Positions 48,353 to 64,000 of a stretch of 64,000 nucleotides of DNA are shown one piece after another; within the stretch, counting starts at the first letter, position 1; each line of letters starts with the position of its first letter. Position numbers and translations under genes: made by a program. The stretch lies in UHGV virus genome UHGV-1366976. One strand, given 5' to 3'. This stretch comes from a virus. Under the pieces are notes generated by a model. It was not told the origin of the DNA and did not search any database. It saw only the letters and a program-made list of their open reading frames with translations.

Positions 48353-48370
48353 ATAGATAAAAAAAACTAA

Positions 48371-48405
48371 GGGGGAAGGTATTACTACTTTCCTCCTTAT
48401 ATTTT
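48371..48405. terminator. bidirectional terminator hairpin (GGGGGAAGG / CCTTCCTCC) between convergent modules
   Basis: The stem-loop lies in the 59-nt gap between the end of the + strand block (48352) and the end of the minus-strand block (48412). It is T-rich on the + side and A-rich on the minus side. Confidence 0.4.
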
Positions 48406-54768: not shown

Positions 54769-55333
54769 TTAACTGCATTTAGAAAATGAACAGGATTTGC
54801 ATAGGAGGCATCCATTATTGAAGACTAATTTATCTCCACACATAGGACAATTTTCTCCACTTTTAGCATTATTATCAACATACTTAGCAATTGTTCTTGC
54901 TAATACTTTATGAAAAGCTGTTAACTCACCTTTACTTTTCTTTAATTGATCAATTAAAAAGTTAAAACCAACATCACTTCTAATAGATATGGATAGAATT
55001 CTAGTAATCATTTCTAGTTGATCATCCATCACATCTACAAAGTTTTCTATAATAACTTTTCCTTCTTGATCTTGTAGTTGATAATATCCTTTTTTAATTT
55101 TAACAATTTTACCAATATCTGGTAATTTAATATCTTCTGGTGTAGGACATACAAATATTTCATATGGTTTACCTTCATAGAAGCCTAATGCACAAAGATA
55201 ATTCTTTCCTTGAACCTTCATATTATGAATATGAGAAAGTAGCTCAGAAGGTCTCTTTGGTGCCTTTCTTGAAGGATCTTTAATCTTATTATCTGTAGAT
55301 ACTAGAACACCACTTCTACTACCATCTCTATAG
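54769..55333 (-). CDS. nrdJ: ribonucleotide reductase (class II-type), 3' exon, encoding ...YRDGSRSGVLVSTDN... and a C-terminal Cys cluster (CPMCGDK...CLLCKSC)
   Basis: The minus-strand frame is open upstream of the annotated Met (55221) back to about 55337, and reads CYRDGSRSGVLVSTDNKIKDPSRK. This is the conserved segment that follows GLKG(V/I)TV in adenosylcobalamin-type RNRs. The class II assignment is inferred from this motif and the absence of a small-subunit gene. Confidence 0.7.
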
Positions 55334-55384
55334 CATTTCTACCTTTACTTTCATAAAGGATTGGACTATACCATAATCCTATTT

Positions 55385-56179
55385 CTAGGATTCCTCCATT
55401 ATAGTCTCTGAACATCTTGTAATCCATTTATATTTATAGCATTCTAAAGGACAGTCTCCTATAAATTTTAAAAATTCTATTAAAGCTTTATTACTTAAAT
55501 AATATGCTCCTCCATTATTATACTTATAATAGTTACAATTTCCAAATTTTTTAAACTGAGACAAAATAAATTCATTATAATGTTTACAAGAGATTTGTCC
55601 TCTATGAGTCTTAGACTTAGATTGTCTAGAGCTATTTCCATCTCCAATATACCACCATAATAACATTATCTTGTCTAAAATAATATTAGGAAGAATTTTT
55701 CTATTTTGTTTTTGCTGAATCATTATTTCTTTTGGATAGAATAAATTATATAGTTCTAGAAACTCTCTTCTTGTTTCAGTTTGAAAACTATAGCATTCAG
55801 AATTTTTTCTATAGAAAATCTTTGAACATTTTATATTATTTTTCTCAAAAATAGAAATTAAATATTCATGTACTTCTTTATGTTTATCTGTATAAGAAAA
55901 GTAGGGGTTTCTTAATTTTTTACTTATTCTAAGACTTCCATCTCCTAAAATTAAACCAATAAGTAAAGATCTAAATTCTGTACTAAATTTAATTTCTGGT
56001 TTCTCAACAAAGCTTTCTTTAACAGATCTTACTTTTATAGAATTTTTAATCAAATGATATCTTAAAGTTCCTAAATTTATATTATACTTTATAGAAAGTT
56101 TACTCATACTTTCTCCATCTAAATACTCTTTAATGATATCATTCCAAAATGAATTAGAATTTTGCTGCTGATTTTCCAT
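55385..56179 (-). CDS. LAGLIDADG homing endonuclease (intron-encoded, 264 aa)
   Basis: Two LAGLIDADG motifs are present, LLIGLILGDGSL and LWWYIGDGNS, plus an N-terminal HTH-like region. Confidence 0.85.
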   Translation of the reverse strand: MENQQQNSNSFWNDIIKEYLDGESMSKLSIKYNINLGTLRYHLIKNSIKVRSVKESFVEKPEIKFSTEFRSLLIGLILGDGSLRISKKLRNPYFSYTDKHKEVHEYLISIFEKNNIKCSKIFYRKNSECYSFQTETRREFLELYNLFYPKEIMIQQKQNRKILPNIILDKIMLLWWYIGDGNSSRQSKSKTHRGQISCKHYNEFILSQFKKFGNCNYYKYNNGGAYYLSNKALIEFLKFIGDCPLECYKYKWITRCSETIMEES

Positions 56180-56212
56180 TTCTAAAAATTAAAAGGTTTT
56201 ACAATAATTATA

Positions 56213-56244
56213 CAAAGATAGTATAAAAATTATAAAATTCCAAA
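56213..56244 (-). promoter_or_regulatory. Bacteroidetes-type promoter inside the intron that drives the LAGLIDADG gene: minus-strand TTTG (56244-56241), 20-nt spacer, TATCTTTG (56220-56213)
   Basis: The minus-strand sequence reads ATTTGGAATTTTATAATTTTTATACTATCTTTGTATAATT, ending 33 nt upstream of the endonuclease ATG. The octamer is the same as at the three + strand promoters. Confidence 0.55.
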
Positions 56245-56382
56245 TAATTTTTTCATCTTAACATTTTTCTAACATTCACACTTATCCTCTCAGATTATGT
56301 TGTAGTAGTTAAGCTTTAGGAGGTTCCAGCAATTTAGAAGGTTATTCAATATACATTACTGTATAAGGCTGCCTATTTGTTA

Positions 56383-58361
56383 ACAGTAACTCCTTTAAGT
56401 CCCATTTTATAAGCATTAAGATAAATTTGTTTTACAACATCTTTACTTACATCTGAGGCTAAATTAATAGTTGTGCTAATTGAACTAGTAGTATATTTTT
56501 GGATAATAGCTTGAATCTCTAATCTTGTTTGCCAAGGAATATCTGCTGCTTCATTATTATAATAAGGAGAAGATTTAAAGAGAGTATTAGTCATACTCTT
56601 AGATAGTTCATTAAACTTCTTTCCAGTTGTTATTTCACAGAATTTCTGGAATCCTTTATGAGCAACTGTAAATACTTTAAATTTCTCTTTAGTATTAGGA
56701 TCTATAAAATCATATTTTTCATCAAAAGCATTTACTTTAACTCTTCTATCATACAATGTTTTAAATACTGGTTCTATACCACTAGTAGTTTGAGTTAGTA
56801 ATGATCCTGATCCAACTGGAGCAACAGTACTTAATGAAACATTTCTTCTTCCTAGTTCTTTCATTCTGGAAACTAGTTTAGGATAATTATTTATTAAAAA
56901 TTCATACCATTGATTACTAGGTTTATCTTCAGGATATTCTAAATTATAATCATAGTCTAAGAAAGTTCCTCTAAGATAAGCTAAATCTATACTAGCTTCT
57001 AATTCAGCTTTAAACTTAGTTTCCATAATAGATTCTACTAGATAATGAGAATCTTTAAATGATAGATTCATTGCAGCAATAGTATCTCCTAAAGCTGTGA
57101 ATCCACATCCAATTCTTCTACCTTTTCTAGCTGCATCAAGAACTCTTTTCCAAAGTTCTATTTCACTTTTAGCATCTGAATGATTGATTATATTTTCAAT
57201 ATTTTTACATTCCAAATCAATAATATCATCCAGAAAGATTACATGTTCATATGCTATTTTTCTAAATAGTTCATAATCAAATGAGGCTTCACTAGTAAAA
57301 GGATTTTTTACAAATGATAAAAGATTAATATGAGATAATCTACATGAATCAGCATCACCTAATGGCTGTTCTCCACATGGATTAGTTGTAACAGCTTTTA
57401 ATCTAGGATATACAGAAGCAGGATCATAATTAATAATATTATCCCATAATAGTATTCCAGGCTCAGCTGTTTTCCAAGCACAATCAATAATTAAATCTAA
57501 CAATTCATTTGCTTTTACCTTTTTAAAATAAGATTTTCCTGCATAATATAACTTATTATATTCAAAATCTTTAGAATTCCAATTAATAAATTCTCCTAAT
57601 CTTGAATTAATAGGCCATTTTAGTAACCAATCTTCATTTTTTTGAGCAGCTGTTACTAAATTTCTACATAATTTCACAGAAATATTAGCTCCTGTAACTT
57701 TAGTTAAATCTTGTTTTATTGTAACAAATTCAGATATATCTGGATGAATATCTGACATACATAACATTAATGCTCCTCTTCTTCCATTTTGACCTATAGT
57801 TTTAACATCTGTAGAATATAATTCCATAAAACTAGGAGCTCCTGTACTTGTTTTAGAAGCATTATTTACCATAGCTCCATTAGGTCTTAAATGATCAAGA
57901 TGTGTTCCAACACCACCCCTTCTCATAAATAAATAAGCCATCTCTTTGCCTTTATCCATAATGCTTTCCATTTTGTCTTTTGGTCCTTCAATACCAAAAC
58001 AATTAGCTAGAGAAACATTATTAGCTTTACCTAGAGATGCCATAATAGATCCTCCTGGTACAATATATTTAAAATTTTTAAATAATTGAAACCATTTATC
58101 TCTGATTTGATAATCATTAGACTCACATAGATCTCTTACATAATTTCTACCTAGATCAGAAAGTTTATCTATATTTATTTTTTTATTTACTAATTCTTTT
58201 TGATACTTTCTTTCTATAAGAGCAATATTATAAGCTAACCTCTGATGCATATTATCAGGTGTTTTTTCATCTTCACCTGCATATTTAGATAAAAATACTT
58301 TAGCTGCTAATTCATCTCCTTCAAAATATTTCACACTACACTCTTCAGCTGTTTTCTTCAT
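56383..58361 (-). CDS. nrdJ: ribonucleotide reductase catalytic subunit, 5' exon (659 codons)
   Basis: The active-site motif is NPCGEQPL. The N-terminus ...KVFLSKYAGEDEKTP is typical of RNRs. The exon ends with the conserved YLNAYKMGLKGVTV. Confidence 0.85.
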
Positions 58362-58362
58362 A

Positions 58363-58893
58363 TCAATTAAAATTTAATTTTTTTCTAATATTTTCATCAA
58401 AAGATAGATCCATATCTCTAAGATAATTAAACTTCTCTTCAGTAAGATCTATTTTAATTTTGTCTAAATCAGAAGGTACTACATAAAAACTTGCTCTGAT
58501 TTTATTTTTTTCATTTTCATCTGTAGTCCAGATATATTTTAATTTAAGAAAATCTAAATCCTTTTTAGGTTTATATTCTTTTAAGATAATATTCTTAGCA
58601 TCATCAGAGAATTCTTCTATTCTATCTTTATGAAATAGATTAATTTCTCTAATAAATTCTCTAGGCATATCAAAAGAATAAATCACACTATTACCATTAT
58701 CAAGATGTTTCTTAAATAATTCATGGTTAGTTAAATAATCTTCATATTTTAAAAAAGCATTACTAGAATCAAACTTATAATGCAAAAGTAGATAAGAACC
58801 TACATATGTTACTTTAGTTAATAATTCTGGAAATTGTATTTTTACTTTTGTTGCTAATAATGGTAATAATAATTTTCTAGCTGCACTATTCAT
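58363..58893 (-). CDS. hypothetical protein (176 aa)
   Basis: ORF in the replication and recombination operon. Confidence 0.45.
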   Translation of the reverse strand: MNSAARKLLLPLLATKVKIQFPELLTKVTYVGSYLLLHYKFDSSNAFLKYEDYLTNHELFKKHLDNGNSVIYSFDMPREFIREINLFHKDRIEEFSDDAKNIILKEYKPKKDLDFLKLKYIWTTDENEKNKIRASFYVVPSDLDKIKIDLTEEKFNYLRDMDLSFDENIRKKLNFN

Positions 58894-59947
58894 CTTCCCC
58901 TCTTACTTGTTTATCATTTATTATATAACAACCTTCTTTATTTATGAAATCATAACTAACATCAAAAATTTGAGACTCATAATGCCATTCAATTTCCTTT
59001 ATTAGTTGTTTAAGTCCTTTTTGTTTATATTCAGATCTTCCTATATAAAAACCATTTTCAAATGCAGAAATTCTATCTTTTTCTACAGTTAATACAGTAG
59101 GAATTGTTGCTCCTGTTGAAGGCATATAAACAAAAACAAAATCTAAGATTTCATAATCTTGATATTGGTCATCATTTTTTATAATTTCTTCAAGCATTTT
59201 ATAATATAAAGTAGCTTGAATCCAATACCTGAATTTCCAGAATTGATCTACAAATTCATCTGATTTAACACTTCCAGTTTTTAAATCTATTATCTGGAAA
59301 GTTTTATTAACATGATCTACTACTAGTCTATCAAATGCACCTTTAACTTTAGATCCATTATAATCAGTAATAAGATCTACTTGATTAAATCCTTCTTGTC
59401 CTTCTAACAAGTTGAACCATTGCTGAGTTTTTGGAGAAGTTTTAATAGTTTCTACAATTTTCTCTGCAGTTGTCCACATAAATGGAGTTATTAAAATAGA
59501 ATCTTTATTCTGTAAAATAAAATCTAAATAATCTTTATATTTCCATACAGCTGCTGCCTTAGTTGCAGGCTTCCATGTTTTATAAAAATCTTTTTGTGCA
59601 AAGAATTCCAGTATAATCTCATCTGTTAACTGTTCTCCTGTTTTATTGATAAAATCTACACATTTATTAATAATTTCAGAAATACTACCAGAAGGCAATT
59701 CTCCATTATAATTATTAATTTTATATTTGTATAAATTTTGAGGAGATAATAACATATCATCTACTAATTTACCAAATATGATGTAAGATTTACCATCAAG
59801 ATCTTTCTTTGTTATTAAAGAAATAGGACCATCTTTATCATAAGATGCTATCTTAGAATAAGATAATGCCTTAGTTTCTCTAAATTCTTGTTCACTACAA
59901 CTTAATCTGAAATTTTCCATTGATCTACTTTTATCCAAACACCACAA
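58886..59947 (-). CDS. PD-(D/E)xK family nuclease (phage recombination exonuclease or Cas4-like, 353 aa)
   Basis: The core motifs are GAFDRLVVDH (D) and FQIIDLKTG (Q/E-x-D-x-K), followed by YWIQATLYY (a Q/Y motif). Confidence 0.55.
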   Translation of the reverse strand: MWCLDKSRSMENFRLSCSEQEFRETKALSYSKIASYDKDGPISLITKKDLDGKSYIIFGKLVDDMLLSPQNLYKYKINNYNGELPSGSISEIINKCVDFINKTGEQLTDEIILEFFAQKDFYKTWKPATKAAAVWKYKDYLDFILQNKDSILITPFMWTTAEKIVETIKTSPKTQQWFNLLEGQEGFNQVDLITDYNGSKVKGAFDRLVVDHVNKTFQIIDLKTGSVKSDEFVDQFWKFRYWIQATLYYKMLEEIIKNDDQYQDYEILDFVFVYMPSTGATIPTVLTVEKDRISAFENGFYIGRSEYKQKGLKQLIKEIEWHYESQIFDVSYDFINKEGCYIINDKQVRGEDE

Positions 59948-60300
59948 TTCTCCTTATCAACAGAATACCATTTTCCTTCAATTTTATAAGGGACAAAGAA
60001 AACTTGATTCATATTATCATCTTCAATCCATCCATTTTTAACTAGTAAATCTGCAATAAATTGGGTTAGATTATGAAAATCACATCTTCTTTTACTATCC
60101 CTAACAAAATGAAGTCTAATAAACAAAGGTTTGTCTATTTCTCCTACATATTCTCTAAATTCTTTTGACTTTTCAACAAAAATATCCTTTGTAGCTTTCT
60201 CATATTTAAAACAAAGAGGAGACTTAATTAAAAGCCCACTCTTTGTCATCATTCTAGAATTTTTGCTACTAGGAACATTACCTGGTATAAAAATTTCCAT
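59902..60300 (-). CDS. rusA: RusA-like Holliday junction resolvase (132 aa)
   Basis: It shows the RusA pattern: an N-terminal PGNVPSSKNSR, followed by RRCDFHNLTQFIADLLVKNGWIEDDNMNQV (rrD.dN..K...D.L...g...DD.qv). Confidence 0.55.
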   Translation of the reverse strand: MEIFIPGNVPSSKNSRMMTKSGLLIKSPLCFKYEKATKDIFVEKSKEFREYVGEIDKPLFIRLHFVRDSKRRCDFHNLTQFIADLLVKNGWIEDDNMNQVFFVPYKIEGKWYSVDKENCGVWIKVDQWKISD

Positions 60301-61704
60301 TTATTTTACTAATTCAATTTGTTTGTAATCATATGAATAAGCAAAATCATCTAGAATTTCAATGAATCCACATCTGTCTCCATAAGAGATTTGATGTTGT
60401 ACTACCATTTTCATTCTATGGGAAATATAAGATAATAAATAGTCTACAATTGTTCTATCCTTAAAACAACTAGAAATAATAGAATTAAGATCTACTTTAA
60501 GTTTATCACTAGAAGCACTCTTAATAATTTCATCCTGATGATTTAGCAAATACCACACTAGGGAATTACAAATATATACCCAGGGAATTACTTTATACTT
60601 ATTTAATGTTGGAGTATGAATTCTAAATTCAATAGTCTTTGCTCCACCAAAAATAAGATTTACAAGATTTACCCATTTGTATCTAGCATGTACTTCCCAT
60701 TTTCTATTACCATCTCTATCATGTGGATGATTTGCTCCAAATCCTTCAAATACAAAACCTGGAGTTTCAGCATACATATCAAACAATTGTTTAAATTGTT
60801 TTTCTACACTAAGAGTATTATCACAAGCATTTTTAGCTAATTTTTTACAATAATCTTTATCTCCCTTCTTAAAAGAGGAAGATGCTGTCATCATTGAGGG
60901 AAACATGGCTAAAATTTGAGGCTCTAATGCTTTAAAATAATGATATGCTGCAACAACAAGTGTTTTATCTACAGTAGGAACTCCTACATGAACATGAAGA
61001 GAACATTGATGGTCAATATCACAATAATTTTGCAACATTTCACAAGTCTCATGTAATACACCAATACCTTCTTTGCCTTTAAGAGGAATTGTAGCATATT
61101 CATTTCCTGTTATTGAACCATCTTTTAAAGGAATTAATCCTAGTCTAGCACATTCTGATTGTGGCACTGAACCAGAACATGTTTCAAATTCTATTCCAAA
61201 AGTTAAATTTGGAAGGTTAAACATACCAATTCTATTGGGAGTGTAATTGTCAGAATGGTATTTTTTAAAATCCTCTAATAAAAATTTAGCTCCATAGTTA
61301 TTTGGGAAATCATACATCCAAGAATATTTTCTATTTCTAATAGGTGTTTTATAGTTATTTCCCATACTAAGTTTCCCATTATACTTATAGATAAGATTTT
61401 TAGGATTAATATACATATCTGGATCAACTTCCAAGAATCCAACTTCTTTTAAATATTTCTTGTCAAATACAGTAATTACAATTCCAAGAATATTTACAGA
61501 AGCATTTTTAGCATAATTTCTACTAAAGAAACCATAATAATATTGTTGAGATAAAGGATCAAAATTTACAACTCCATAAATAAGAGAAGAAACAGAACTT
61601 CTCATCTCTTTTTTCTCAAAATCATAATATCTACTTCTACTAGGAGCAGTTTGAGTTAAGAAATAATGAACTCCTTCTTCTACATTAAAATCATTCTTAA
61701 ACAT
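60301..61704 (-). CDS. two-domain protein (467 aa): an unknown N-terminal ~160-aa domain plus a C-terminal Amidoligase_2-like (glutamine synthetase/GCS2-type carboxylate-amine ligase) domain
   Basis: TFGIEFETCSG is a G-x-E-x-E motif. CSLHVHVGVP is the H-x-H-x-G motif typical of GCS2/YbdK-type amidoligases. TIEFRIHTPTLN is an E-x-R motif. Confidence 0.5.
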   Translation of the reverse strand: MFKNDFNVEEGVHYFLTQTAPSRSRYYDFEKKEMRSSVSSLIYGVVNFDPLSQQYYYGFFSRNYAKNASVNILGIVITVFDKKYLKEVGFLEVDPDMYINPKNLIYKYNGKLSMGNNYKTPIRNRKYSWMYDFPNNYGAKFLLEDFKKYHSDNYTPNRIGMFNLPNLTFGIEFETCSGSVPQSECARLGLIPLKDGSITGNEYATIPLKGKEGIGVLHETCEMLQNYCDIDHQCSLHVHVGVPTVDKTLVVAAYHYFKALEPQILAMFPSMMTASSSFKKGDKDYCKKLAKNACDNTLSVEKQFKQLFDMYAETPGFVFEGFGANHPHDRDGNRKWEVHARYKWVNLVNLIFGGAKTIEFRIHTPTLNKYKVIPWVYICNSLVWYLLNHQDEIIKSASSDKLKVDLNSIISSCFKDRTIVDYLLSYISHRMKMVVQHQISYGDRCGFIEILDDFAYSYDYKQIELVK

Positions 61705-61707
61705 AAA

Positions 61708-63513
61708 TTAATCCAGTGTTTTTAAAGTTTTAGTCAAATCTTCAATAATTTCATTAGCTTCTTTAATCAATTCAGAAAGTCCAGTAATGTCTTGACATTC
61801 TTGTACAAACATTAAAAATTGTTGTTTACATAATTCTACTTGTGCAAAACTTTCACTTTTAAGAGCTAATAATAAATCCTCATAATTATTCTTTACATCT
61901 TCTTTAAACTCTTCCCAACCTAAGTCACCAAAATAATATTTAATGCATTCAGAAAGTTGGGTAAAATCTGTTCTTAACCATTCAGGACAGAGAATATTTG
62001 TTCTGTCAGATTTAAAATTACTATAGTAGTGAGACATACCTACTCTCTTACCTATATCATTAAAATCTGTTTTAGTAGAAAAAGTTTTATAGAATTCACT
62101 AATTCCTTTAGTAATTAAATAGCTTCTTAAAGTAAATAAAGGACTAAAATAGCCTGTTGGAAATATATTCCCTTTTACTTTAAAATCATATCTAGTAAAG
62201 GCATTCTCTCCTAAATACAAGAAATTCTCAGCAATAAAAGGTGTAATATAATCCACTTTTCCTGTTAAAGTATAAATTTGTTGAGCCATTTTATAACAAT
62301 GAGGATGGATTAGTATACCATCTATAAAGTACACTTTCCAATCTGAAGTATATTTACTTGTAGTTATATATCCTAAAGGAGAACAATTATACACTCCATT
62401 CAATAACTGTTTCTTTTGATAATATCTACCTCTAGCAAATAGAATATTATCACTATTATAATAGCCTTCAGTAGATTCTTTATCTAGATCACTTTCAAGT
62501 TTGGTTTTAGAAGGAACTATTAAAACTGGAATCTTTTTATCTTCCTTCTTAGTATTAAATTTGTTTCCTTCTTTATACCTTTCAGATTCTCTCTCCCAAT
62601 ATCTCTGATAAGCAACATCATCTTCATAATCATCACCATAACTTCCATAGTTATAATAATCATAACCATAAGCATTGTGATTATGACCAGAATAAGTGGA
62701 TACATAAGGTTTCTTTTGAAGACATTCACTCCTATCATAGACAGTTTTACTTACAAGTTTTCCATTTTCAAATTTATATAAAGTATTAGGTTCTACAGGA
62801 GCTATTCTTTCTTGATCATCTTTAGAATTATCTATAAATGATAAAGATTCTTCTAAAGAAGAAAAATACCAATAATCCTCATCTATATTATACAAGAACA
62901 AAGGTCTTTCTTCATCTGTAGTTGTTGAAGTACTATAAGCTTTAGATTTTCCTCTAAAAATATATACTACATCAACTCCTCTAGAAATCTTTTCTCTAAT
63001 ATCATAGATAACTATAGCTGCTGCACCAATATATTCAGTTAGGATTTTAAATCCCTCTTTTTTAATTAGTTTAGCTAGAATTTTAGAATCAGTTTCACCT
63101 TTAACTTCTTTGATACCATATTTTTCAGCTAATTCTTCATGATTCTGGAGTGTACCATTATGAATCATTACAAAATCTTCTGTTAAAACATTTTCTTGTT
63201 TTTTTTGTTCTTCTGTTAAAGACTCATTTAATAATACTATGGGTTGAGCATTAGCTTCTGTATGAGCACCTACAGTAGCTTTTCTACAATGTCCTAAAAT
63301 AACATTGTTTTCTTTAAATACAGAATCATTTTTATAAGATAAAACTAAATCTCTATAAAGTTTTTTCTTTTCTACTCCATAAAGAACTCTTCCTAGTAAA
63401 TACCTTCCACAAGAATCACCACCTCTAGAATCATTAAAAAGTCCTAATACATTAAACTTATCCCAACTAAATCTTTTATTATCTTTTCCAATATAACCAA
63501 AAAGTCCACACAT
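61708..63513 (-). CDS. fusion protein (601 aa): an N-terminal class II (Ntn) glutamine amidotransferase domain plus a ~400-aa C-terminal domain of unknown function containing a Tyr/Asp-rich low-complexity tract
   Basis: There is a motif-by-motif match to GlmS/PurF-type Gn-AT II domains: MCGLFGYIG (nucleophile Cys2), SRGGDSCG (RG-DS-G), GHCRKATVGAHTEANAQP (R-AT-G...NAxP), VMIHNGTLQNHEEL (HNGxIxN) and GETDSKILAKLI (ETD[ST]E). No PP-loop SGGxDS is present, so this is not a QueC or AsnB-type synthetase. The low-complexity tract reads YGYDYYNYGSYGDDYEDD. Confidence 0.8.
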   Translation of the reverse strand: MCGLFGYIGKDNKRFSWDKFNVLGLFNDSRGGDSCGRYLLGRVLYGVEKKKLYRDLVLSYKNDSVFKENNVILGHCRKATVGAHTEANAQPIVLLNESLTEEQKKQENVLTEDFVMIHNGTLQNHEELAEKYGIKEVKGETDSKILAKLIKKEGFKILTEYIGAAAIVIYDIREKISRGVDVVYIFRGKSKAYSTSTTTDEERPLFLYNIDEDYWYFSSLEESLSFIDNSKDDQERIAPVEPNTLYKFENGKLVSKTVYDRSECLQKKPYVSTYSGHNHNAYGYDYYNYGSYGDDYEDDVAYQRYWERESERYKEGNKFNTKKEDKKIPVLIVPSKTKLESDLDKESTEGYYNSDNILFARGRYYQKKQLLNGVYNCSPLGYITTSKYTSDWKVYFIDGILIHPHCYKMAQQIYTLTGKVDYITPFIAENFLYLGENAFTRYDFKVKGNIFPTGYFSPLFTLRSYLITKGISEFYKTFSTKTDFNDIGKRVGMSHYYSNFKSDRTNILCPEWLRTDFTQLSECIKYYFGDLGWEEFKEDVKNNYEDLLLALKSESFAQVELCKQQFLMFVQECQDITGLSELIKEANEIIEDLTKTLKTLD

Positions 63514-63530
63514 AATATTATTTTAAATAA

Positions 63531-64000
63531 TTAAACCATAGGAATATTAAATGTCTCTACAAGCTGTTTAGCTACTTCTACATTTCCTCCCATAGCTGCT
63601 AAGACTTCATCTTTTAATACATCTATATCAATAGAATCTTCATCGTCATTTAAATATTTATTTACTTCTTCAATAGCTTTAAGAGTATTATTAAAAGCCC
63701 ATCTTAGTAGATTATCATCTTTTAAGAAATATCCACTTAATGTTCTGGCTTCTACTCCATATCTACAATGTCTAAAAGACCCAGCTGATCCATAAACTCC
63801 TCTTCTCTCATTCTTAGGCTCTATTAATACAGAAGGAACTCCAACAAATAGATCAAAGAATTTTACTATAATAATATTTAATGGAGCTACAGGATCTTTA
63901 TATCCTATATGAATGTGCATACCCACAGTCCTCAATGTTCCTGGAAATTCTGCTGGTTTAGGATTAACTTCTCCATCTTTCCAAGCATTATAATCTTCAG
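63531..64000 (-). CDS. second Amidoligase_2-like protein; its N-terminus lies beyond the window edge (at least 156 aa seen)
   Basis: The minus-strand frame is open from 64000 (...EDYNAWKDGEVNPKPAEFPGTLRTVGMHIHIGYKD...). The annotated M is a TTG. It carries HIHIG and GVEARTLSGYF motifs that parallel SLHVHVG and IEFRIHT in the 467-aa paralog. Confidence 0.45.
   Translation of the reverse strand, partial: EDYNAWKDGEVNPKPAEFPGTLRTVGMHIHIGYKDPVAPLNIIIVKFFDLFVGVPSVLIEPKNERRGVYGSAGSFRHCRYGVEARTLSGYFLKDDNLLRWAFNNTLKAIEEVNKYLNDDEDSIDIDVLKDEVLAAMGGNVEVAKQLVETFNIPMV

Follow-up and report, generated by a model that had tools for sequence, protein, structure and literature searches.

A crAss-like copy of the phage amidoligase module in virus genome UHGV-1366976

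Phage amidoligase modules combine six protein families, namely ATP-grasp ligases, COOH-NH2 ligases (COOH-NH2_lig, PF14395), Amidoligase_2 proteins (PF12224), long-form class II glutamine amidotransferases (GAT-II), class I glutamine amidotransferases (GATase-I/C26) and gamma-glutamyl cyclotransferases (GGCT/AIG2, also matched as GGACT). The 2009 paper behind this gene set is that of Iyer, Abhiman, Burroughs and Aravind. The present analysis concerns three adjacent minus-strand genes at the end of a 64,000-nucleotide stretch of the UHGV virus genome UHGV-1366976 (the window), which encode an Amidoligase_2 protein (467 aa, 60301..61704), a long-form phage GAT-II (601 aa, 61708..63513) and the C-terminal 155 residues of a phiEco32-type COOH-NH2 ligase (63531..64000, cut by the window end). 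An earlier reading based on the sequence alone had taken this arrangement as new. It is an already described phage amidoligase module that GenBank annotates in cr108_1, phi14:2, LUZ24 and more than 300 other phage records, and the three genes are very probably the last three of a nine-gene version of it. The source phage is crAss-like and uncultured, and it carries a new crAss-like copy of the module predicted in 2009, not a new system.

Three later papers credit this gene set to Iyer et al. 2009 (PMC11945000, PMC10580990, PMC11318856). In PMC11945000 (2025), the LUZ24-type cluster (GGCT, ATP-grasp, aminohydrolase, amidoligase plus COOH-NH2 ligase) is called a “putative peptidoglycan modification module” and is predicted to introduce three unusual stem-peptide links, either to block superinfection or to prepare lysis. 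The same peptidoglycan prediction appears in PMC10580990 (2023) and PMC11318856 (2024), the former adding that the function awaits exploration. No experimental work on the module was found in the literature, which up to 2025 gives a prediction only, in agreement with the sequence-only reading that no function is known.

Gene content and order were compared in a survey of 88 loci (80 IMG/VR loci and 8 further ones, all chosen for a long GAT-II) using a dedicated set of iterated hidden Markov models. By annotation, the set is also present in LUZ24 and in a phiEco32-like Kuravirus, where the profiles from the survey match the genes for the COOH-NH2 ligase, ATP-grasp and GGCT. As in the phage of the window, the six families are clustered, co-directional and located beside a primase gene in LUZ24 and Kuravirus. 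The two differ from the window phage in that the amidoligase gene comes before the GAT-II gene and the ATP-grasp and GGCT genes lie downstream. Compared with these podoviruses, the window phage has two extra open reading frames (ORFs) of 189 aa and 242 aa, an N-terminal extension of ~160 aa on the Amidoligase_2 protein and an unalignable GAT-II C-terminus. UFV-P2, which is a LUZ24-like phage, has a gene for an HNH endonuclease inserted between those for the amidoligase and GAT-II.

The window phage has no close relative in the phage collection, where the best GAT-II identity is 41%. The closest deposited GAT-II relatives are found in the crAss-like phage cr108_1 (41% identity; MT774385, Pipoluvirus, Steigviridae) and the Cellulophaga phage phi14:2 (36% identity; KC821624, Akihdevirus). 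Both carry an orthologous module in the same slot as the window phage, between the primase gene and the genes for RusA/uracil-DNA glycosylase (UDG), a PD-(D/E)xK nuclease and ribonucleotide reductase (RNR), with identities to the window phage, in the comparison of orthologues, of 35-36% for GAT-II, 34-44% for the COOH-NH2 ligase and 29-36% for Amidoligase_2. An ATP-grasp protein, an amidotransferase, a COOH-NH2 ligase and a glutamine amidotransferase are already annotated in cr108_1 and phi14:2. Their gene content differs from that of the window phage: cr108_1 contains two paralogues of a conserved protein termed X (described below) and lacks GGACT, phi14:2 lacks both GATase-I and X, and neither phage has the 189-aa or the 242-aa ORF. 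Orthology of the module at the BLAST level extends to cr108_1, phi14:2 and an unrelated Alcaligenes podovirus. What is new here is the nine-gene layout in the crAss-like lineage, the pairing of a GATase gene with a following ligase gene, the X family, and the lineage-specific GAT-II C-terminus.

The nine-gene module and its enzymes

The sequence-only reading had raised the possibility that the cluster extends past position 64000, and it does so on a 98.9-kb contig (ENA ERZ1310019 NODE_33, locus L002), which was found by an exact-protein look-up and shows 0 mismatches over 8000 nt to positions 56001-64000 of the window. The six families of the module are contiguous in L002. Downstream of the primase gene, the module begins with a GGACT/AIG2 gamma-glutamyl cyclotransferase gene (1.1e-17), followed by the genes for protein X (275 aa, L002 5389-6216), a class I GATase/Peptidase_C26 protein (2e-18) and a RimK/R2K-like ATP-grasp ligase (333 aa; weak R2K and RimK matches, PHROG 2599 at 2.3e-23), by the 189-aa and 242-aa ORFs, neither of which has an assigned function, and finally by the genes for the type 2 COOH-NH2 ligase, the long-form GAT-II and Amidoligase_2. 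Within Pfam, Peptidase_C26 (2e-18) outranks GATase (1e-10) for the class I protein. The original ORF calls for the three window genes on the minus strand hold, with junctions of 0, 3 and 17 nt.

Residues conserved to at least 90% across loci include C85, H193 and E195 of GATase-I, the YGSL motif and E78 of GGACT, and E271-x-N273 of the ATP-grasp protein. Judged by such motifs, all six enzyme families are catalytically intact and co-inherited. All nine proteins have a negative grand average of hydropathy (GRAVY), which fits soluble proteins. A search for known anti-phage defence families with PADLOC returned no passing match for eight of the nine proteins and one marginal match for GGACT (0.0056, no passing stretch).

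The N-terminal part of the 601-aa protein had been recognized as GAT-II from its motifs, and the profiles agree (GATase_6, 2.4e-13, 50.7 bits against a curated cut-off of 27). The catalytic domain comprises residues 1-260 (62734..63513). The nucleophile cysteine stands immediately after the initiator methionine (MCG), and the remaining motifs are RGGDSCG (residues 30-36), CRKATVG (76-82), HNGTLQN (118-124) and ETDSK (140-144). The protein has 270 homologues, and in 57 GAT-II homologues C2, R30, G31, D33, G36, H75, R77, H118, N119, G120 and D142 are invariant; R77, N119-G120 and D142 are the equivalents of the glutamine-binding and oxyanion residues of PurF and GlmS (Arg73, Asn-Gly, and Asp). 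Matches to GlmS, PurF and AsnB in NCBIfam are limited to the N-terminal part, as are the PDB profile matches to PurF and GlmS. An AlphaFold2 model (mean pLDDT 84) supports the four-layer alpha-beta-beta-alpha fold of N-terminal nucleophile (Ntn) hydrolases, and a Foldseek search with the model matched the GlmS glutaminase domain (1xff, E 6e-12, TM 0.66-0.71) in addition to GFAT, AsnB, PurF and the gamma-glutamyl amidohydrolase EgtC. The pocket that receives glutamine by its alpha-amino and alpha-carboxylate groups is retained, and it would suit an ammonia donor no less than a gamma-glutamyl-amide hydrolase of the EgtC or PuuD kind.

The catalytic domain is followed by a low-complexity linker (residues 271-298, 62620..62703), the Tyr/Asp-rich tract of the sequence-only reading, which is predicted to be disordered (pLDDT below 50). 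In distant homologues, the Tyr/Asp/Gly-rich composition of the linker recurs at the same position but its sequence does not. The C-terminal region (61711..62502) is modeled as a beta-rich domain (residues ~338-480, pLDDT near 90) and a long helical hairpin (~520-600), and ~340 C-terminal residues of the protein have no assignable fold or family. The absence of a PP-loop or synthase domain from the C-terminus, also claimed earlier, is supported by the lack of any Pfam, NCBIfam or PDB-sequence match beyond residue ~320; no SGGxDS motif was seen by eye in the C-terminal sequence, the AsnB matches cover the GAT domain only, and no fused acceptor (synthase) domain that would take channelled ammonia was found. 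A phmmer search with the last 331 residues against 1.8 billion representatives returned only the protein's own cluster and two fragments. Using hhalign, no similarity of the C-terminus was detected to any other module family or to the GAT-II C-termini of LUZ24, Kuravirus and the Alcaligenes phage. The C-terminal region is thus always present yet unalignable across the crAss-type, LUZ24, Kuravirus and Alcaligenes-phage versions, and on these grounds a role in docking or target recognition appears to fit better than catalysis. The protein had also been regarded as a novel fusion. That description has to be abandoned because a GAT-II of 430-700 aa with a non-catalytic C-terminal extension is the norm in the module (470-562 aa in the Alcaligenes podovirus, LUZ24 and the phiEco32-like Kuravirus). 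The GAT-II gene of LUZ24 and that of Kuravirus are directly followed by small ORFs of 73-77 aa (L089 11050-11271 and L090 11629-12067, respectively). Nothing equivalent is seen in the crAss-like module; in the podovirus versions these ORFs could provide a peptide that serves as substrate or tag.

The 467-aa protein had been placed in Amidoligase_2, and it scores above the gathering threshold of that family (PF12224, 8.5e-9, 36.1 bits against 22) and matches PHROG 2443 (1.5e-19). The ligase core spans residues ~165 to 400 and contains the metal, histidine and arginine motifs expected of a glutamine synthetase (GS)-like enzyme, with E172-x-E174, D195-G-S, H237-x-H239-x-G241 and E359-F-R361 conserved to at least 90% in 80 relatives. 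The N-terminal extension of unknown kind that had been noticed on this protein measures ~160 aa and is poorly conserved. The orthologues in cr108_1 and phi14:2 are hyp486 (1.9e-63) and gp052 (1.8e-42), respectively.

The cut ORF starting at 63531 belongs to the phiEco32-like type 2 COOH-NH2 ligases and exceeds the gathering threshold of PF14395 both as a fragment (3.1e-7, 30.3 bits against 25; PHROG 3815, 1.8e-32) and at its full length of 272 aa (L002 9165-9983; 36.2 bits against 25; PHROG 3815, 9.7e-62). Residues D12-P-E14, E57, R140, R182 and R202 are conserved to at least 90% across loci. In some near-identical genomes (L006 5766-7731; L011, L014, L017) the gene is split into pieces of 150 aa and 130 aa by a ~1.1 kb insertion carrying a LAGLIDADG_3 gene; it is intact in the genome of the window.

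The two proteins that flank GAT-II had been described as paralogous, Amidoligase_2-like members of the GS/GCS2-type ligases. Profile matches favor the assignment to this class, but the claim of paralogy was rejected: the proteins fall into different Pfam families, BLASTP gave an E value of 0.37, and an hhalign comparison of an 83-sequence with an 80-sequence family reached 1.7% with only the E-x-R motif aligned. According to these profiles, the two ligases are separate families within one broad ligase class.

The X family is represented in 63 of the 88 loci, and two paralogues often stand in tandem (e.g., L001 5656-7557). To this family belong two “hypothetical” genes of cr108_1 and, as a remote member, the 275-aa ORF (hhalign 95%, E 4e-8). 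Cys24 and Arg159 are invariant and Glu163 is nearly invariant, and sequence searches of Pfam and the PDB gave no match. X is a seventh conserved member of the module and may be an enzyme. The 189-aa and 242-aa ORFs are restricted to close relatives of the window phage (12-14 loci). The crAss-derived profiles of X and of the 189-aa and 242-aa proteins gave no match to LUZ24 gp14, gp15 or gp17, or to Kuravirus gp086, gp087 or gp084.

Distribution and genomic position among phages

The COOH-NH2_lig family is present in all loci of the survey (88/88), followed by Amidoligase_2 (84/88), GATase-I (79/88), ATP-grasp (76/88) and GGACT (46/88). The order COOH-NH2_lig, GAT-II, Amidoligase_2 is found in 87 of the 88 loci, and GATase-I lies immediately upstream of COOH-NH2_lig in most of them. 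Most loci thus contain two gene pairs in which a GS-like ligase gene is preceded by a GATase gene, and this recurrence suggests two glutamine-dependent amidation units. Contigs of jumbo-phage size are among the carriers of the module. Two contigs of 168 and 395 kb encode C26, COOH-NH2_lig and GAT-II followed by a protein of 409-414 aa in the Amidoligase_2 position, which has no Pfam match on record; no ATP-grasp or GGACT gene was found within 10 kb of the core in these contigs.

The module was identified in at least 80 IMG/VR contigs, and the COOH-NH2 ligase is present in 316 deposited phage records, mostly from Pseudomonas, Escherichia, Vibrio and Aeromonas phages. A pattern scan for the COOH-NH2 ligase in cellular genomes, with one representative per species for 185,579 bacterial and archaeal species, revealed only 15 loci, 14 of them on contigs of metagenome-assembled genomes (several of phage-like length) and one on a 1.1-kb isolate scaffold. 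The module looks essentially confined to phages.

Of the 75 primase matches across loci, 61 are to a gene that ends within 1 kb upstream of the module. In Crassvirales, Bruynoghevirus (LUZ24) and Kuravirus alike, the module adjoins a primase or primase/helicase gene (primase-side coordinates L002 4033-5392, L089 12283-14708 and L090 13974-14672, respectively), and the GGCT gene, where present, is nearest to the primase gene. This adjacency could reflect shared expression timing or a functional link. The sequence-only reading had connected the cluster to nucleotide metabolism. The module is indeed embedded in a block of such genes, but a position in the early/middle block beside the primase gene, as seen in the three unrelated phage groups, is weak evidence for a functional connection.

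The position inside a replication and nucleotide-metabolism block, with a primase or primase/helicase gene as neighbor, would be compatible with a hypermodification that attaches groups to a nucleotide or to the phage DNA by an amide link, and Gat-QueC is a precedent for a GAT-II fusion that acts in DNA modification. However, in phage genomes with two blocks any non-structural gene is expected to have the same early/middle-block position. Neither a PP-loop nor a QueC-like domain was found, and the verified neighbors (48.4-64 kb of the window, and L002) include no DpdA, hydroxymethylase, aGPT-Pplase or 5-HMUDK. Instead, they include ThyX, dUTPase and a deoxynucleoside monophosphate (dNMP) kinase (within 48.4-64 kb or L002), which is equipment for canonical T-containing DNA, and a UDG gene follows the module in cr108_1 and phi14:2. 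Of 16 restriction enzymes, 11 cut the DNA of U17, a LUZ24-like phage that bears the module (PMC11945000). Based on the enzymes for canonical dTTP supply, the restriction of U17 DNA and the weak positional evidence, DNA hypermodification is the least supported of the three explanations offered by the sequence-only reading and is considered highly improbable. A broader version, in which the module acts on nucleotides or DNA (by amide-linked modification or through a nucleotide-derived signal or inhibitor) or produces an anti-defence gamma-glutamyl metabolite, is improbable too; the lineage-specific C-terminus of GAT-II would then engage the target.

A putative amide-bond pathway and its candidate substrates

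The preferred reading of the module, with a probability of about 0.6, is that it forms and trims amide bonds on a carboxylate other than DNA, through a pathway located in the cytoplasm and dependent on ATP and glutamine. Both GS-like ligases would activate a substrate carboxylate with ATP (as an acyl-phosphate), and the activated carboxylate would be joined to an amine or to glutamine-derived ammonia supplied by the preceding Cys-nucleophile amidotransferase. In most loci the partners would be GATase-I with the COOH-NH2 ligase and GAT-II with Amidoligase_2, and the proposal that these pairs are glutamine-dependent amidation units is a tentative one drawn from gene order. The ATP-grasp enzyme would add another amino-acid or peptide bond. 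GGACT would trim gamma-glutamyl groups, possibly together with the GAT domains as gamma-glutamyl amidohydrolases similar to EgtC or PuuD. The divergent C-terminal region of GAT-II would most likely serve for docking or as a scaffold and not as a synthase domain. The substrate is expected to be a carboxylate-bearing cytoplasmic molecule common to many bacteria.

A glutamine amidotransferase combined with an ATP-dependent activator of a carboxylate follows the same logic as the two-component, glutamine-dependent enzymes of peptidoglycan amidation, MurT/GatD and the AsnB-type LtsA/AsnB1 (see also PMC3267633). The ligase folds are different: MurT belongs to the Mur ligases and AsnB carries a PP-loop synthetase, but the predicted ligases of the module are GS/GCS2-like and lack a PP-loop. 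A peptidoglycan precursor, modified by stem-peptide amidation or extra peptide links, is the sole published prediction of the substrate and by analogy a possible, though rather doubtful, candidate; it had not been among the options of the sequence-only reading.

Several observations weigh against the proposed pathway. Neither ligase family includes an enzyme with a known substrate, sequence searches of the PDB with both ligases gave no match, and the scan of 185,579 species yielded no informative cellular neighborhood that would anchor the substrate. X, the 189-aa and 242-aa proteins and the GAT-II C-terminus have no assignable function. In the window phage, the genes for GATase-I and the COOH-NH2 ligase are not neighbors, and the order of the module in LUZ24 is different. 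The peptidoglycan idea is based on analogy, and the benefit of remodeling the cell wall is not obvious for strictly lytic phages. Finally, the GAT domains are perhaps thiol peptidases and not ammonia donors, which reportedly was the original reading in Pfam and by Iyer et al.

The rank of Peptidase_C26 above GATase in Pfam bears on a different explanation, namely that the product made and turned over by the module is a small molecule of the gamma-glutamyl type or a short non-ribosomal peptide. Candidates would be a thiol similar to glutathione, a gamma-glutamyl polyamine or a cofactor that carries glutamyl groups, used for redox supply, charge neutralisation or the takeover of host metabolism. 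Ligases of gamma-glutamyl metabolism include GshA, EgtA and PuuA with a GCS/GS fold and GshB, RimK, CofF/MptN and BtrJ of the ATP-grasp type, and the hydrolases include PuuD and folate gamma-glutamyl hydrolase (Peptidase_C26), EgtC and yeast Dug3 (GAT-II), and BtrG (GGACT/GGCT). Each of the module's enzyme classes is thus represented in gamma-glutamyl metabolism. Also in favor of this explanation, the structural matches of GAT-II include EgtC, GGACT is present in 46 of the 88 loci and all proteins have a negative GRAVY. The combination of a ligase with an enzyme that removes gamma-glutamyl groups is shared with EgtA/EgtC (ergothioneine), PuuA/PuuD (putrescine use) and BtrJ/BtrG (butirosin), but these are cellular systems with known substrates, the similarity is at the superfamily level only, and none of them has the long GAT-II C-terminus. 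The analogy holds at the level of enzyme classes only. Furthermore, the module contains no transporter, thiol-handling or cofactor gene, and since its hosts include Bacteroidota as well as producers of glutathione (E. coli, Pseudomonas), no one known metabolite fits all of them. A gamma-glutamyl product is regarded as doubtful.

The divergence of the GAT-II C-terminus between lineages is also what would be expected of a surface that contacts a partner or target. Accordingly, the module might add and trim peptide or glutamyl tails on a host or phage protein, similar to the glutamylation of ribosomal protein S6 by RimK or to pupylation, with the GAT domains as thiol isopeptidases and the variable C-terminus recognizing the target. 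The ATP-grasp protein is weakly similar to R2K/RimK and matches PHROG 2599 (“ribosomal protein S6 glutaminyl transferase”, 2.3e-23), and the R2K clade has been predicted to act on proteins in phages (PMC4431377). The small conserved ORFs after GAT-II in LUZ24 and Kuravirus would be in line with a peptide tag, but the crAss-like copies, with their junctions of 0-17 nt, have no such tag-like ORF. The intact pocket for free glutamine or gamma-glutamyl groups (R77, D142) fits a small leaving group better than a protein isopeptide, and no target protein is known, making a protein-modifying role unlikely. The candidate substrates of the module are ranked with a peptidoglycan precursor first, followed by a gamma-glutamyl small molecule or peptide, then a protein, and with DNA or a nucleotide last.

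Genomic setting and significance

The plus strand of the window contains giant ORFs of 1244 to 3598 aa, a size typical for crAss-like phages. From ~48.4 kb to the window end, the minus strand carries a compact, co-directional block of replication and nucleotide-metabolism genes. The plus-strand block, which holds the virion and giant-ORF genes, converges with this replication block at a strong 14-bp stem-loop followed by a T-run (48368-48399, plus strand), and the GC skew flips its sign at the same spot.

The neighboring genes that had been named from the sequence were largely recovered: Pfam identifies the PD-(D/E)xK nuclease, the class II RNR, dUTPase, ThyX and the dNMP kinase, and PolA is found in the annotation of L002. 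A Pfam match exists for RusA as well, but it is weak (E 9.4e-4, 20.2 bits) and below the 22.8-bit cut-off. Further Pfam matches in the block are a Rv2179c-like exonuclease and a metallophosphoesterase. The block had been called one operon; it is a putative one, with co-directional, tightly packed genes and no convincing internal terminator. A scan for sigma-70 promoters was at chance level (110 found against 109.9 expected), and the single weak stem-loop in the three window genes (61584-61603, inside the Amidoligase_2 gene) is within chance expectation.

The class II RNR gene (54769-58361, minus strand) is broken by a LAGLIDADG_2 homing-endonuclease gene (55385-56179), leaving an RNR piece of 662 aa and a 150-aa TSCPD piece. 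The RNR differs among contigs that code for an identical GAT-II protein (L003, L004): one carries an intein-bearing RNR of 1165 aa (Intein_splicing and LAGLIDADG_3), and in another the RNR is split elsewhere (333 aa and 506 aa).

Since cultured phages already carry the module, the window copy adds little tractability and is not an easier route to its function; LUZ24, the phiEco32-like phages and phi14:2 are better starting points. Should the improbable nucleotide or anti-defence role turn out to be true, it would provide the first function for PF14395 and PF12224, two families that occur almost exclusively in phages, as well as for an accessory pathway in the crAss-like group. The module is widespread and conserved down to the catalytic residues, and solving its function would close a gap that has been standing since 2009.

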